Source: Candidatus Gastranaerophilales bacterium
GTDB taxonomy: Bacteria; Cyanobacteriota; Vampirovibrionia; Gastranaerophilales; JAILCC01
Direction of reading: 5' to 3'
DNA: 64,000 nt
NCBI GenBank assembly: GCA_045598245.1
Contig: JAZLLQ010000042.1
Coordinates: forward strand, 2,976 to 66,975
In this document: in pieces, positions 47,823 through 64,000 of the stretch
How positions within the stretch are numbered: position 1 is the first letter of the stretch
Layout: each line of letters begins with the position of its first letter
Program-made: the position numbers and the translations under genes
Notes under the pieces: model-generated
Told to the model about the DNA's origin: nothing
The model's database searches: none
What the model saw: the letters and a program-made list of their open reading frames with translations, nothing else

Positions 47823-47866
47823 GCCGATGACGGGAGTCGAACCTGCGACCTACCGATTACGAATCC
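47823..47866 (-). other. tRNA 3'-half fragment (anticodon loop to discriminator), a probable prophage att site
   Basis: The reverse complement reads ...TTCGTAA-TCGGT-AGGTC-GCAGG-TTCGACT-CCCGT-CATCGGC-A. This covers a T loop, an acceptor 3' strand and an anticodon-loop-like TTCGTAA (CGT would be Thr). No matching 5' half (GCCGATG...) is present, and there is one A-C mismatch in the T stem. Confidence 0.6.
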
Positions 47867-47949
47867 CTTTCTAAATTCAATTTTGCAACAAAAACAATGG
47901 TTTTACAACCTCTGAATTGAATCCTAATTATATGAATTGGAATACAAAG

Positions 47950-59477: not shown

Positions 59478-62400
59478 ATGGAAAATAATGATGTAATGTT
59501 CGGAGATAAGTCTTTAGAAGAATGGGCTAATATGTACCCACAATCAGAAACAAACTTATCTGATGAACAAGCTGAACAAATGGGGATTTTACAACCTGAA
59601 CCTGAAACTCAAGAAGTACCTCAAGAACAATCAGGAAATAAACTATACCAAATGGCTGATAAAATTGGGGTTGAACATCCTGATGAAAATAAAGAATATA
59701 AAAAATTATCAGTTGGTGAAACTTTAGGAGATATAGGTAAAACAATGGGAGCAGAAGCTCTCAAGATTGTAGCTCCTAAAGAAGATTCTTGGCTGGCTAA
59801 TAAAACAGGCTTTTCAGAAGCTAACTTATATCAACACGATTCTGAAACAAGAATTGGTGACGCAAGTAAGTACCTGTATCGTTATGGTGCTGGTACTTTA
59901 TCCTTCATCTTTGGTGGTGGTAAAGTTGGTGCTGCTATAAAAGCTGTTGGTGTAGCTAAAAATTCAGCTAATGCTATCAAAATTGGTACAGGAATCCAAA
60001 AGCTTATGGGAGCAGAAAAGCTAATCAAAACTGGTGCTAATGCTTCTAAATTTGCTAAAGCTGGAGCTTTTCTAGCTAATGGAGCTTTAGCTGGCTCTTT
60101 AGCTGGTGGAATGTCTGATTTTACTTTTTATAGAGAAGATGAAGGACATTTAGCTGATTCCTTTGGTGTAACAGATAATCCTATAATTTCATACCTTCAA
60201 ACTGATGAAAATGATTCAGAAGCACAAGCTAAATTGAAGAATGTAGTTGAAGGATTTATTGTTGGTATTCCTTTTGGGATTGGTATTGATGGTGTTAAAG
60301 CTGCTACAGGTTACTTTAAATCAATGAAAAAAGTTGCCCTAGCACAAACAGCTGAAGAAGCTGCTGAAGTTTTACCTGAAGCTATGCTAAGCGAAGCTAA
60401 ACTTCAAAATGTATTACAAACTTCAGAATTAGTTGATACAGTCAGAAAAATAAAATCCTCAGCTGATATGCAAGGCTTAGATGCTGAACAGATGATTATT
60501 GATTCAATGAATCCAAAACAATATGATGATGCAAAAAGTATCTTGAAAAAGTTAAATGATGGTGAAGATATATTTGTCCATGAAGATGGAACTTGGGATA
60601 TAAGAGTTCAATCTTGGGAAGATGCTGCAAAAGTATCTCCTGAAGAATATAAAAAGCAATTAGCTGCTATGGATGAAGATATGGCTAACTATCAAGCTAC
60701 AAACTATGGAGATACAGCTTTATCTCATCAAGATTCAGCTGTTAGAGATACTTGGGTTAATCGTGGTTGGATTGGTGAAAATGAAGAATTAACATCCAAA
60801 ACAGCAAATAAAGTAGCTAAAAACTATTTAGATAAATGGCAAATTGACAATAATGTAAAAGTAGAATTTGTTGATGGATTAACTATTGATGGTAAAGCTG
60901 TAGAAGGGAATACTTCTGCAACTAAATATCAAGGAAAAGTTACGAAATCAAAACAAAATGCTATTGATAAAAAGAAATTACAAATCTCAAAACTTGAAGA
61001 TAAGATTACAATGGAAGAAGGAACTAATGCTCCTGTAGCTGATGTTCTTGATAATCTTAAAGAAGAATTGAGAATTGCTAAGAATGAACTTACAGAACTT
61101 GAAAAAGATGCCAATAAGAAAAATAGAATATCAAATATCACAGTTCAGATAGATAAAAATGCTTCTAATCCTTATGCAACATTGAGAAGTGAATTAGAGC
61201 ATGCAAGAGATATAGCAAAAGGTACTATACCTGATACAAATGTACAGCATTTTTCAAGATATACAGGCATGAATGAAGCAGAGGTTGCTCCTGATTATGT
61301 TTACAAAAAATCACAAAGGAAAATAAATGAAAAATACAAACCAACTAATTGGGATAAGGAACATTTTAAACAATTTAACAATGGTGAACCTGATGTAGTT
61401 TATATGGAACATAAAAGTCAAATTCAAGAAGGTACTCAACTAAAATTAGACTTTAATTCCGTTGAAGATGTTACTCAAAAGGTATCAACAGGAGAATTTC
61501 AACCTAAAACTATGGGTGAAGTTGATGCTATGATTACAAAAGCTATAGAGTTAGACCCTGAAGTAAGTGGTTATACCAATAAAGCTTTAGCTGAAGATGC
61601 TGATAAATATTCTAATACTATTAAAGATTTATTAGATTTAGAAGATGATTCATCTCTAAAAATAATATTTTCTGATACAAAAGATGATATTGCTGCTTAT
61701 TCTCGAAAACAATTAGAAGCAACTAAAGTAATTAGTCAATTATTGGATAAAATTGAATCTTTAGGTAAAGATGTTTCTATTGAAACAAAGAAACAATATG
61801 TTGATGCTATTCAATATTTAACAGATTATAAAGAACAATTGGGTTCGGGTGCTGGTGTTTTATTACGAGACCAAAAATTTGTTAATAAGGCTGTTGAAGC
61901 TTTTGGCTCTAAGAGATTATCTCAATTAAATAAAGATAGTATCAGAAGTTTTGTTGATTTATTAAAAGAATCAATAGATGAAATCAATTTACAATTCACA
62001 AGAGGTAGTTTAGTTCAAAAGAAACAAGCTCTATATGCAAAATTAGCAGAATTAGACCCTACTATGCTAGCTACAATGGGAGAAGATTTAGAATTTGCAG
62101 CTAAATTTGATAAAGTTGTTGATGCTATTATCAAAAACCCAAATATAGATGCTGAAGCTGCTTCAAAAGGATTGGAAAATATTTTTACTGAAAGAAATTA
62201 TAATTCATTATTAGAAAAAACTATACTTGCTCCAAAGAAAAAAGGTATTTATGAAACAATAAAGAACTGGACTAATGAGCAAGGTGGAATTGCTTCTTAT
62301 TATGTACATAACCTTCTATCAGGTGTTGGTACTTTAGCTAAAAACATCATATCAGGTGGAATGAACACAGTTTATTTTCCAGCTAAGAAGATTTTAGCCG

Positions 62401-64000
62401 GATTAACTGACCCTATGTTATCTTCAGACCAAAAAGGTGTGATGCTTAGAGAAGGTTTAAATACTTATAAGAATTTAGTTACTACTTGGAATGAATCTTG
62501 GCAATTATGTTGTCAGGCATTTCTTAAAGGTGATGGTAAACTTAGCTCTATTGGTGCTGATACCTTAAATATGGATGAAACTTTCAAAGGTTTCAATGAA
62601 ATAGGTATTGGTAAAGAAGCTACATTTTGGGAAACTGTACAAAACATTCACTCAATAATGACAAGAGCTATGGGTGCTTCTGATGAATTTATGTCTCAGC
62701 TTAATTATAGGTCTATTGCAAGAGCAAGAGCTATGGAAGCTGCTGATAAATTAGCTCAAATAGCTGGTAAAGCAGATGATGAAGCTTGGATAAATGATAC
62801 AACAGACCAATTATTCAAGAAATACTTTACTTCTGATGGAAAGCCACTTGATGTTAGTATTTATAATGAAGCAAAAACCATTTTATATCAAAATCCTTTG
62901 AATGGTAAGATGTTTGACCCTAAAACAGGTGGTAATTATGATATAAGAACAGGCAAATTGCTTGAAAAAGGGGAGAATGGAACACAAACAGCTGTTATGA
63001 AAATAGGTGCTGCTTTCCAAAAATCTGCTAATGAAAACTTATTAGTAAAATTCTTCTTTCCTTTTGTTAAAACAGGTACAAACATCCTACAAATGAACTT
63101 AGACCATAACTTATGGTATAACTTAGCTTCTCCGGCACAAAGACAAATACTTATGAGCAGCACTCCTGAAGGTGCTTTATTGAGGTCTCAATGTGCTTTT
63201 GGTGCATTTAGCTTTGCTTATGGAACTATGTTAGCCATAAATGGTATGATTACAGGTTCAATGCCTTCAGATGCTAAAGAGAGAAAAGCTCTATTAGCTA
63301 CAGGCTGGAAACCTTATTCATTTAAAGTAGGAAACACTTATGTATCTTATCAAGGTTATGAACCTTTGCACACAATGTTAGGATTTGCTGCTGATTCAGC
63401 TAATTTATATACATCTATTAAAGATGGAGATAAAGAAGGTGAAGATAGAGCTTTAAAATTAAGTATGCAAGCAGCTTCTGTCTTTGTTAATAACTTCTTA
63501 GATAAAGCAGCTTTCAGAACAGGTTTAAAAAGTATGTCAGCATTATTTGAATTGGATGAAAGTCATATTATGGATTGGAAACAAGCTATGGCACAACCAC
63601 TTCAAAATATGCTACCTGATGCTCCAATGGTTAAAAACATTTCAACTCTTGGAAAAAGAGAAGCAACAGCTCCTCAAACTGTTTATGAAAGAGTTTTCAA
63701 TATGTATTTTAACAGAGGTTTAGGTGAATATCGTAGAGATGCTTTTGGAGATAAACAAAACATCTATAATGCTATTTTAACCTCAGCTACAGTGCAAGGT
63801 AATGAACCTGAATATATAGAACTCAGCAGATTAGCTGAAAAAGGATATAAACCTACAGAAATAGGTCAAACTATTTCAGGTTACAGTTTAAATTATAAAG
63901 ATTTTAAAGACCCTGTAACCGGTAGAACAGCTTATGATTTAATGCAAGAAGAACTTTCTAAAACAGATTTGAAAGAGAGAGTTCGTGAGCTTGTTACAAG
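59478..64000 (+). CDS. giant internal virion/ejection protein (gp16 position), 3'-truncated by the window end
   Basis: Not in the ORF track. ATG at 59478 is preceded by AAGGAGAG (59467-59474). I translated the frame manually to position 64000 (1507 codons plus 2 nt) without meeting a stop. The three minus-strand track ORFs inside it are shadows. Confidence 0.8.
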   Translation, partial: MENNDVMFGDKSLEEWANMYPQSETNLSDEQAEQMGILQPEPETQEVPQEQSGNKLYQMADKIGVEHPDENKEYKKLSVGETLGDIGKTMGAEALKIVAPKEDSWLANKTGFSEANLYQHDSETRIGDASKYLYRYGAGTLSFIFGGGKVGAAIKAVGVAKNSANAIKIGTGIQKLMGAEKLIKTGANASKFAKAGAFLANGALAGSLAGGMSDFTFYREDEGHLADSFGVTDNPIISYLQTDENDSEAQAKLKNVVEGFIVGIPFGIGIDGVKAATGYFKSMKKVALAQTAEEAAEVLPEAMLSEAKLQNVLQTSELVDTVRKIKSSADMQGLDAEQMIIDSMNPKQYDDAKSILKKLNDGEDIFVHEDGTWDIRVQSWEDAAKVSPEEYKKQLAAMDEDMANYQATNYGDTALSHQDSAVRDTWVNRGWIGENEELTSKTANKVAKNYLDKWQIDNNVKVEFVDGLTIDGKAVEGNTSATKYQGKVTKSKQNAIDKKKLQISKLEDKITMEEGTNAPVADVLDNLKEELRIAKNELTELEKDANKKNRISNITVQIDKNASNPYATLRSELEHARDIAKGTIPDTNVQHFSRYTGMNEAEVAPDYVYKKSQRKINEKYKPTNWDKEHFKQFNNGEPDVVYMEHKSQIQEGTQLKLDFNSVEDVTQKVSTGEFQPKTMGEVDAMITKAIELDPEVSGYTNKALAEDADKYSNTIKDLLDLEDDSSLKIIFSDTKDDIAAYSRKQLEATKVISQLLDKIESLGKDVSIETKKQYVDAIQYLTDYKEQLGSGAGVLLRDQKFVNKAVEAFGSKRLSQLNKDSIRSFVDLLKESIDEINLQFTRGSLVQKKQALYAKLAELDPTMLATMGEDLEFAAKFDKVVDAIIKNPNIDAEAASKGLENIFTERNYNSLLEKTILAPKKKGIYETIKNWTNEQGGIASYYVHNLLSGVGTLAKNIISGGMNTVYFPAKKILAGLTDPMLSSDQKGVMLREGLNTYKNLVTTWNESWQLCCQAFLKGDGKLSSIGADTLNMDETFKGFNEIGIGKEATFWETVQNIHSIMTRAMGASDEFMSQLNYRSIARARAMEAADKLAQIAGKADDEAWINDTTDQLFKKYFTSDGKPLDVSIYNEAKTILYQNPLNGKMFDPKTGGNYDIRTGKLLEKGENGTQTAVMKIGAAFQKSANENLLVKFFFPFVKTGTNILQMNLDHNLWYNLASPAQRQILMSSTPEGALLRSQCAFGAFSFAYGTMLAINGMITGSMPSDAKERKALLATGWKPYSFKVGNTYVSYQGYEPLHTMLGFAADSANLYTSIKDGDKEGEDRALKLSMQAASVFVNNFLDKAAFRTGLKSMSALFELDESHIMDWKQAMAQPLQNMLPDAPMVKNISTLGKREATAPQTVYERVFNMYFNRGLGEYRRDAFGDKQNIYNAILTSATVQGNEPEYIELSRLAEKGYKPTEIGQTISGYSLNYKDFKDPVTGRTAYDLMQEELSKTDLKERVRELVT

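Follow-up and report, generated by a model that had tools for sequence, protein, structure and literature searches.

Temperate relatives of phage T7 are already known and include LUZ100, Pasto, pelagiphages and P-SSP7. T7-related prophage elements were called widespread in the LUZ100 paper, in which lysogenisation of its host by Pasto and the integration of pelagiphages are also reported (PMC10134795). The view that integrated T7-like phages are rare, taken in the initial annotation of the DNA analysed here, is thus dated. The stretch under study, called the window, comprised 64,000 nucleotides of contig JAZLLQ010000042.1 from a Candidatus Gastranaerophilales bacterium (assembly GCA_045598245.1). 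Its positions 47822-64000 very probably represent one end of a temperate T7-like prophage, from a podovirus lineage with a single-subunit RNA polymerase, in the 3' half of a tRNA-Thr(CGU) gene of this gut bacterium, with the lysogeny cassette of the phage located in mid-genome. The visible 16 kb correspond to the virion-gene half of the phage. The insertion of the prophage end into the tRNA-Thr gene is real and its mechanism is ordinary.

No deposited phage matched the window in a DNA-level search with its sequence. At the protein level, the Pseudomonas phage LUZ100 was among the nearest deposited phages, with identities of 35.7% for the nozzle, 41% for the capsid and 44% for the portal protein. 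It shares with the family described here a single strand that carries the T7-type RNA polymerase along with the replication and structural modules, and a tyrosine integrase with a tRNA-associated attachment (att) site. It differs in its proteobacterial host and in lacking a GT8 glycosyltransferase gene, and no M23 domain is noted in its gp15. Within the early region of LUZ100, its integrase, a MarR-like regulator and tRNA-Leu immediately precede the RNA polymerase (PMC10134795). The other nearest deposited relatives by RNA polymerase and nozzle are likewise integrase-bearing Autographiviridae, namely Pasto (Rhizobium/Agrobacterium), Mesorhizobium Lo5R7ANS, Rhizobium RHEph01, Ralstonia BOESR1 and Desulfovibrio ProddE, the last of which carries an excisionase, an integrase and a CI-type repressor. 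The nozzles of this proteobacterial and Desulfovibrio group were 36-38% identical to that of the window. The RNA polymerase of the window's family, known from related gut-metagenome genomes presented below, shared about 35% identity with those of Pasto, Lo5R7ANS, TRX32-1, RHEph01 and BOESR1. Because identity to the integrase-bearing Autographiviridae was about one third, the window phage belongs to a separate deep lineage. Its host also sets it apart, being a member of the Gastranaerophilales, whereas Pasto, Lo5R7ANS, RHEph01, BOESR1 and ProddE infect Proteobacteria or Desulfobacterota.

P-SSP7 and the pelagiphages HTVC019P and HTVC025P are likewise T7-like podoviruses with integrases and tRNA-derived att sites. 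The nozzle of HTVC025P was 34% identical to that of the window. P-SSP7 shared only 25% identity in the capsid, 25% in the nozzle and 37% in the portal protein, compared to 41% in the capsid and 36% in the nozzle for LUZ100. A kinship with cyanopodoviruses, which the initial annotation had implied, was rejected on these values. The phages do not reflect the sister relationship of their hosts, since P-SSP7 was more distant than the proteobacterial phages.

The gene order of T7 (gp8-9-10-terminator-11-12-13-14-15-16) was found in the window, and the Pfam families built on T7 proteins matched. The related genomes added homologues of the T7 RNA polymerase, gp4, gp5, gp6 and gp19. T7, however, is strictly lytic and has neither integrase nor att site. 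The cell-wall hydrolase of T7 is a transglycosylase in gp16, whereas in the window an M23 peptidase was fused to the protein in gp15 position. The temperate phages also differ from the window's family in their layout. The integrase lies immediately upstream of the RNA polymerase in ProddE, RHEph01 and BOESR1, and in P-SSP7 both the integrase and a MarR-like gene precede the polymerase. Including LUZ100, all five phages checked for this feature had the integrase directly upstream of the RNA polymerase, an arrangement from which the present lineage departs. Its cassette sits in mid-genome, and the difference is therefore one of layout, not of mechanism.

Host–phage boundary and tRNA-Thr half-site

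Left of the junction, the window resembled an ordinary bacterial chromosome with host genes on both strands (Cas9, UvrA, RNR, LepA, EF-G, GH57, GlgC, RibF, GcvP, MscS, SMR, DUF3137 and LemA). Right of it, all credible open reading frames (ORFs) were closely packed on the + strand. GC skew changed at the boundary from negative values to +0.13 to +0.28, and codon choice changed with it. The codon GCT accounted for 75% of alanine in phage genes vs 30% in host genes, and GGT for 64% of glycine vs 49%. The sharp boundary and the preference for GCT and GGT beyond it had both been recognised in the initial annotation, as had a Melainabacteria-type gut bacterium as the host. For the latter, LepA and UvrA of the window fell into clusters of at least 90% identity with NCBI proteins named Candidatus Gastranaerophilales bacterium. 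A nozzle profile scan of one genome per GTDB species gave eight loci, seven of which were in metagenome-assembled genomes labelled Gastranaerophilales or Melainabacteria and one in a genome labelled only 'uncultured bacterium'.

The boundary coincided exactly with a 42-nt 3' half of tRNA-Thr(CGU) at 47822-47863 on the minus strand. Read on that strand, TTCGTAA-TCGGT-AGGTC-GCAGG-TTCGACT-CCCGT-CATCGGC-A, it contained the anticodon loop (CGT), the 3' anticodon stem, a 5-nt variable loop, the T arm, the 3' acceptor strand and the discriminator. CCA was not encoded and the 5' half was absent. The sequence occurred once in the window and was matched in none of 100 shuffles. It aligned with annotated thrW of E. 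coli K-12, a tRNA-Thr(CGU), from the anticodon loop to the discriminator, and the likeness ended upstream of the loop. Equivalent halves were present at the same place in 10 related loci. A tRNA half from anticodon loop to discriminator without its 5' counterpart had been described before at this boundary, although as 44 nt at 47823-47866, which is off by 1-3 nt. ARAGORN called no tRNA at 47822-47863, and an Rfam scan of the junction left the half-site unscored and returned chance matches only, as expected for a fragment.

The 3' end of the half pointed towards the host (left) and the broken 5' side towards the phage (right). This orientation is what integration into a tRNA gene should produce at the junction where the displaced 3' half stays behind. 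The site in the window is the junction distal to the integrase, consisting of host flank, core and phage P' arm. A second att copy was not found within the window by ARAGORN or sequence search, and the source contig (68,487 bp) ended about 4.5 kb past it.

Genome order, attachment sites and junctions in related phages

Scans of IMG/VR with single proteins gave nothing for gp16 and nozzle relatives of at most 34% identity; the IMG/VR relatives were subsequently recovered by a profile scan. The nozzle had more than 100 homologues in gut metagenomes with 48-81% identity, many of them on 42-46-kb contigs and some on longer ones of 130-400 kb. About a dozen related gut-metagenome genomes showed the order T7-type RNA polymerase, primase/helicase, PolA, exonuclease, Xis-like helix-turn-helix (HTH) protein, tyrosine integrase, attP and portal. 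A complete relative of 42.4 kb was assembled from three overlapping IMG/VR loci. It encoded an 840-amino-acid T7-type RNA polymerase (PF00940, 9e-114), a gp4-like primase/helicase, PolA and the 5'-3' exonuclease, followed by the integrase, attP, a structural module with GT8, tail fibre genes and a T7-type large terminase (TerL) with an RNaseH-like domain. Its RNA polymerase was found in four genomes of the family at 69-100% identity. The attP architecture was family-wide: the integrase gene followed the exonuclease at a distance of 1-3 kb in every case, and attP and the portal module came immediately after it. Integrases of PF00589 lay directly upstream of the core in the relatives L082, L091, L104, L101, L103 and L107; that of the window phage would lie beyond the contig. 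In L082, whose nozzle and capsid were 71-78% and 92% identical to those of the window, the order was 5'-3' exonuclease, RNA ligase, PNKP, a dGTPase-like gene, an HTH_17 (Xis-like) gene and the tyrosine integrase, then a short gap, after which came the small ORFs and the portal gene known from the window.

Both junction types were present among the relatives. The attP form L082 and the host-flank form L083 encoded an identical nozzle protein and had 437 mismatches in 18,230 compared positions, equal to at least 97.6% identity, but were unrelated left of the tRNA CCA end. A 400,848-bp contig from the Hadza gut (L081) contained host genes, a Thr(CGU)-like tRNA half, the conserved arm and the portal module in succession. 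The sequence of host flank, tRNA 3' half, P' arm and portal module was also found in the independent assemblies L083, L089, L093 and L095. The far-end junction was represented by the 222,808-bp contig L279, with PolA, exonuclease, HTH_17 gene, integrase and P-arm motif, an intact tRNA-Met on the minus strand and host genes including GroES/EL.

The junctions of eleven loci (the window, L081-L084, L086, L089-L091, L093 and L095) were aligned. In the window, the P' arm extended from 47864 to 47981 on the + strand. It contained a conserved 19-nt block, AATCCTAATTATATGAATT, at 47920-47938, followed after about 12 nt by a tandem of TGGACACAGA at 47950-47959 and 47961-47970 with a single A as spacer. 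These motifs were conserved in register across the eleven loci. In the uninterrupted attP forms (L082, L086, L091 and L104), a second tandem copy (ATGGACACAnARTGGnCATA) was situated left of the core, just past the integrase gene, and an inverted copy of the AATCCTAATTATATGAATT block overlapped the end of that gene. In the complete relative, tandem pairs occurred on the two att arms only, with one stray exact 10-mer at 6932. The TGGACACAGA repeats are read as putative arm-type integrase sites and not as promoters of the phage RNA polymerase, because the tandem copies were confined to the att arms; the promoter interpretation was rejected on that ground. The cores varied. The window, L081 and L091 had a Thr(CGU)-like core, whereas that of L082-L084, L090 and L279 resembled tRNA-Met(CAU), and L086, L089, L093 and L095 had shorter 3' ends of other tRNAs.

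A related cassette was observed outside the family. At 9817-11177 of locus L277, an integrase with 59% identity to the family's Thr-type integrase and an HTH_17 partner lay beside an intact tRNA-Ala. The element was not T7-like and contained an HTH_3 repressor-like gene, a second recombinase and DUF3800. Since a related integrase and HTH_17 gene occur in this element, unrelated mobile elements of these hosts appear to exchange the Xis-integrase-att cassette.

The proposed course of integration is as follows. The lysogeny cassette of Xis-like HTH protein, tyrosine integrase and attP would lie in the middle of the free genome, between the exonuclease with a few small genes and the portal gene. 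Its attP would consist of a core copying the 3' part of the host tRNA, flanked by arms with tandem TGGACACAGA-type repeats and the inverted 19-nt block. Recombination of this core with the host tRNA by the integrase would give a map that begins with host DNA, the tRNA 3' half, the P' arm, structural genes, tail fibre and terminase. Past the joined genome ends, it would continue with early genes, RNA polymerase, replication genes, Xis, integrase and P arm to the intact tRNA and the host. The integrase and the rebuilt tRNA would thus come to lie about 40 kb from the junction in the window. The att site adjoins the structural module because the native attP sits in mid-genome between integrase and portal gene, and integration consequently leaves the structural genes and the integrase at opposite ends of the prophage. 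An integrase at the far end had been among the reasons first offered for this neighbourhood, and it agrees with the gene order of the relatives and with the integrase-side junction and intact tRNA of L279. The permuted genome order suggested alongside it does not hold, as the free phage genome is collinear with T7 and the prophage map alone is permuted. We infer that the copy in the window is complete and excisable and that its repeats bind the integrase, and the manner in which lysogeny is maintained is likewise a matter of inference.

Several points weigh against a prophage end of this kind. One A-C mismatch is present in the T stem of the half-site, and the TGGACACAGA repeats are assigned as putative arm sites by position and conservation. 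For this prophage itself, the 68,487-bp source contig stops short of any integrase, RNA polymerase, second att copy or intact tRNA, and the junction is known from the assembly. An empty attB in a related strain was not found at the loci of DUF3137 homologues or in a scan of JGI metagenomes. The flanking DUF3137 had no homologue above 49% identity, the loci of its homologues were without tRNA-Thr beside LemA, and the tRNA half had no exact match in the JGI metagenomes scanned.

The host genes nearest to the att site, at 44215-47687, encoded LemA, DUF3137 and two ORFs without a family match. They had no close homologue among 15 billion proteins; LemA was alone in its cluster and the best match of DUF3137 was the one with 49% identity. 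LepA, located 20 kb from these genes, had 20 near-identical cluster members. This stretch of host DNA next to the tRNA half thus resembles an island that varies between strains.

A decayed or truncated remnant would be an improbable source of the locus. In such a remnant, the structural module alone would have survived at an old att site, with the integrase, RNA polymerase and replication genes deleted. Nothing was visible beyond gp16, with at most 4.5 kb of contig past the window, and the window held no second att copy, both as a remnant would leave them. However, the ORFs of the 16 kb were intact, full length and collinear with complete relatives of about 44 kb, with no frameshifts or insertions. 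The layout from att to portal requires no deletion and equals the native position of attP in the family. The contig end is expected from assembly, because many contigs of relatives also break around the att or tail-fibre region. The intact, collinear 16 kb argue against decay, but less so against a truncation farther on.

A join made during assembly, either of a free phage and an unlysogenised host contig through the shared 42-nt core or as a plain chimera, is highly improbable even though the source is a metagenome-assembled genome and a short-k-mer assembler could bridge a core shared by phage and host: the junction lies exactly at the core boundary, where a random chimera would not land, junctions of this type were repeatedly recovered in separate assemblies of different samples, involving different tRNA genes and contigs of 160-400 kb, the complementary integrase-side junction also exists, and common metagenome assemblers finish with k-mers longer than a 42-nt repeat. 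The temperate prophage with its attP in mid-genome is therefore preferred for the locus, in agreement with the T7-type structural module beside a tRNA half-site that was first noticed in this Melainabacteria-type bacterium and is now supported by gene matches, half-site and host protein clusters.

Structural module, capsid tails and tail fibres

Membership of the window phage in the T7-like group was evident from Pfam and PHROG matches for gp8, 9, 10, 11, 12, 13, 14 and 16 in T7 order on one strand. The 13 ORFs right of the junction were full length and collinear with T7 gp8-gp16, with 52-92% identity to the closest relative L082/L083 where alignable. The gene series 7.3-8-9-10-(terminator)-11-12-13-14-15-16 of the initial annotation held from gp8 to gp16, including the terminator, and remained unproven for gp7.3. 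The homology to T7 gp8, gp10 and gp12 that it had proposed was borne out by the PF12236, Gp10A-like and PF25675 matches.

The first ORF on the + strand (47960-48250) encoded a small conserved protein, listed with 96 amino acids, that was present at the same position in all relatives with 42-64% identity and remained without a match in Pfam, PHROG or NCBIfam. Its listed start falls among the arm repeats, with which it overlaps; an alternative start at 48017 has a better ribosome-binding site and gives 77 amino acids. A terminator-like hairpin at 48305-48328 (+ strand) followed, with a 9-bp stem including 5 G-C pairs and then a T run. The next gene (48357-48965, +) encoded a Gly/Ala-rich protein of 202 amino acids in gp6.7/gp7.3 position, identified by position only. 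Its C-terminal LRI..GLNI motif also occurred in LUZ100 gp33, described as 'similar to T7 gp7.3', with a non-significant E value of 0.32. As position and this motif were the only indications and Pfam, PHROG and NCBIfam gave no match, its identity as gp7.3 is unproven.

The portal or head-tail connector gene (T7 gp8) was located at 48975-50585 (+; PF12236, 7.5e-56; phrog_449, 2e-141), and its product was 82% identical to that of L082. It was separated from the capsid assembly/scaffolding gene (T7 gp9; 50849-51667, +; PF05396, 8.7e-14; phrog_1052, 6.5e-41) by an acidic 82-amino-acid ORF (50598-50846, +), weakly conserved in L082 and without a family match. The major capsid protein (T7 gp10; 51680-52654, +; PF21703 Gp10A-like, 1e-46; phrog_267, 2e-63) was the one with 92% identity to L082 and ended in ...ANDAASGS. 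A strong intrinsic terminator, with an 11-bp stem and then a run of seven T, was present at 52689-52714 (+), the position of T-phi in phage T7. Downstream of the GT8 gene discussed below, the tail tubular protein A or gatekeeper (T7 gp11) was encoded at 53545-54108 (+; PF17212, 3.5e-40; phrog_446, 1.7e-52). Its ORF was listed from 53503, and 53545 is the likely start, gp11 of the relatives having 187 amino acids. Tail tubular protein B, the nozzle (T7 gp12; 54108-56426, +; PF25675, 2.2e-216), was 34-38% identical to nozzles of deposited Autographiviridae. The internal virion proteins comprised a gp13-like internal virion or assembly protein (56407-56877, +; phrog_308, 3.3e-29; PF11090, 2.8e-4, below the curated cut-off) and gp14 (56883-57428, +; PF24072, 2.5e-18; phrog_805, 1.3e-19). 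The protein in gp15 position, also of gp15 size (57439-59466, +), carried a C-terminal M23 peptidoglycan endopeptidase domain (PF01551, 5.7e-10, residues 576-667), an architecture shared by all relatives. The gp16-like large internal virion protein (59478-64000, +; phrog_6651, 4.9e-42) was cut by the window end with its frame open. It comprised more than 1507 of about 1600 amino acids and was 73% identical to the 1611-amino-acid protein of L082.

Between the capsid terminator and gp11, a GT8-family glycosyltransferase was encoded as an accessory gene (52736-53542, +; PF01501, 1.5e-25), which had been overlooked in the initial annotation. It showed phage-like codon use and a weak match to the lipopolysaccharide (LPS) 3-alpha-galactosyltransferase NF011718. 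The gene occupied the same slot in L104 (8634-9431, 69% identity), L103/L295 (~8629 in L103, 68%) and L089 (~8648, 45%) and was absent from most relatives. The capsids of the four GT8 phages (window, L104, L103 and L089) ended in S/T-G-S/T tails such as ...AASGS, ...PTSGSGS and ...TTVSGT. Most relatives without GT8 had short Ala/Glu tails, and four of them had Ser/Thr-rich tails. In this small and phylogenetically non-independent sample, the pattern hints that GT8 may glycosylate the capsid tail rather than the host LPS. Capsid glycosylation has been reported for mycobacteriophages (PMC11256854).

The tail fibre of the closest relatives consisted of the T7 N-terminal domain and an Mtd-like domain. 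In L082, L083, L086 and L087, a reverse transcriptase (RVT_1) gene directly followed the tail fibre gene and was cut by the locus end; in L082 this region spans 20384-22496. The IMG/VR locus L287 is from a more distant relative. Its region 6004-7789 contained a PF03906+mtd_2nd fibre gene with a pair of 111-nt repeats at the 3' end. Nearly all mismatches of the pair were A in the downstream copy, as is typical of the template of a diversity-generating retroelement, and no reverse transcriptase ORF was found in that locus. The relatives may thus have such a retroelement acting on the tail fibre, a part of the genome that the window does not reach.

Host-side loci and implications of the lineage

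Other loci were observed in the host part of the window. A complete type II CRISPR-Cas locus at 862-6684 comprised a tracrRNA-like anti-repeat (~862-897), Cas9 (965-4057), likely cas1 (4057-4944) and cas2 (4941-5273), and an array at 5330-6684 with 21 repeats of 36 nt (ATTATACAATAAATGCTTTCGAAAGGAAACTATAGC) and 20 spacers. The 20 spacers gave only chance matches of 12-17 nt to the prophage and all fetched loci of the family. A tRNA-Val(GAC) gene at 464-538 (minus) adjoined a 92-nt tandem repeat at 525-723 (2.2 copies, 96% identical), each unit of which began with a copy of the tRNA-Val 5' end (GCGCTAATCGCCCA). The repeat may be a scar of repeated insertion or excision at this tRNA gene, or a duplicated promoter region. 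A protein of 1056 amino acids encoded at 10175-13345 (minus) had an unusual giant architecture of many tandem HTH modules, with 29 Pfam HTH-type families matching along its length (HTH_23, 1.6e-43).

In full-text literature searches, no T7-like or other tailed phage was found described for Melainabacteria or Gastranaerophilales, the sole mention being a passing host listing for Microviridae. The lineage appears not to have been described previously. What is new here is modest and consists of the host phylum, the integrase in mid-genome instead of beside the RNA polymerase, and the probable diversity-generating retroelement on the tail fibre of relatives. A broader proposal, to which we give an even chance, is that these phages form an undescribed and abundant temperate T7-like clade specific to gut Gastranaerophilales. 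It would be defined by four traits: an integrase-attP cassette moved to the boundary of replication and structural genes, retargeting among tRNA genes (Thr-CGU, Met-CAU and others) with the same arm motifs, a tail fibre diversified by a retroelement and, in some members, a GT8 that may modify the Ser/Thr-Gly-Ser tail of the capsid.

Gut Melainabacteria are uncultured, and the prophage together with its relatives of about 44 kb provides a concrete pair of phage and host for that phylum, including a defined attachment site. The temperate T7-like phages, a growing group, thereby gain a deep branch at about 35% identity, whose layout shows that a lysogeny cassette can lie outside the region of the RNA polymerase. 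For annotation, a T7 structural module adjoining host DNA is no evidence of decay in this lineage. The att sites, with conserved arms and variable cores, could serve as a small natural series for studying how tyrosine integrases change their targets.

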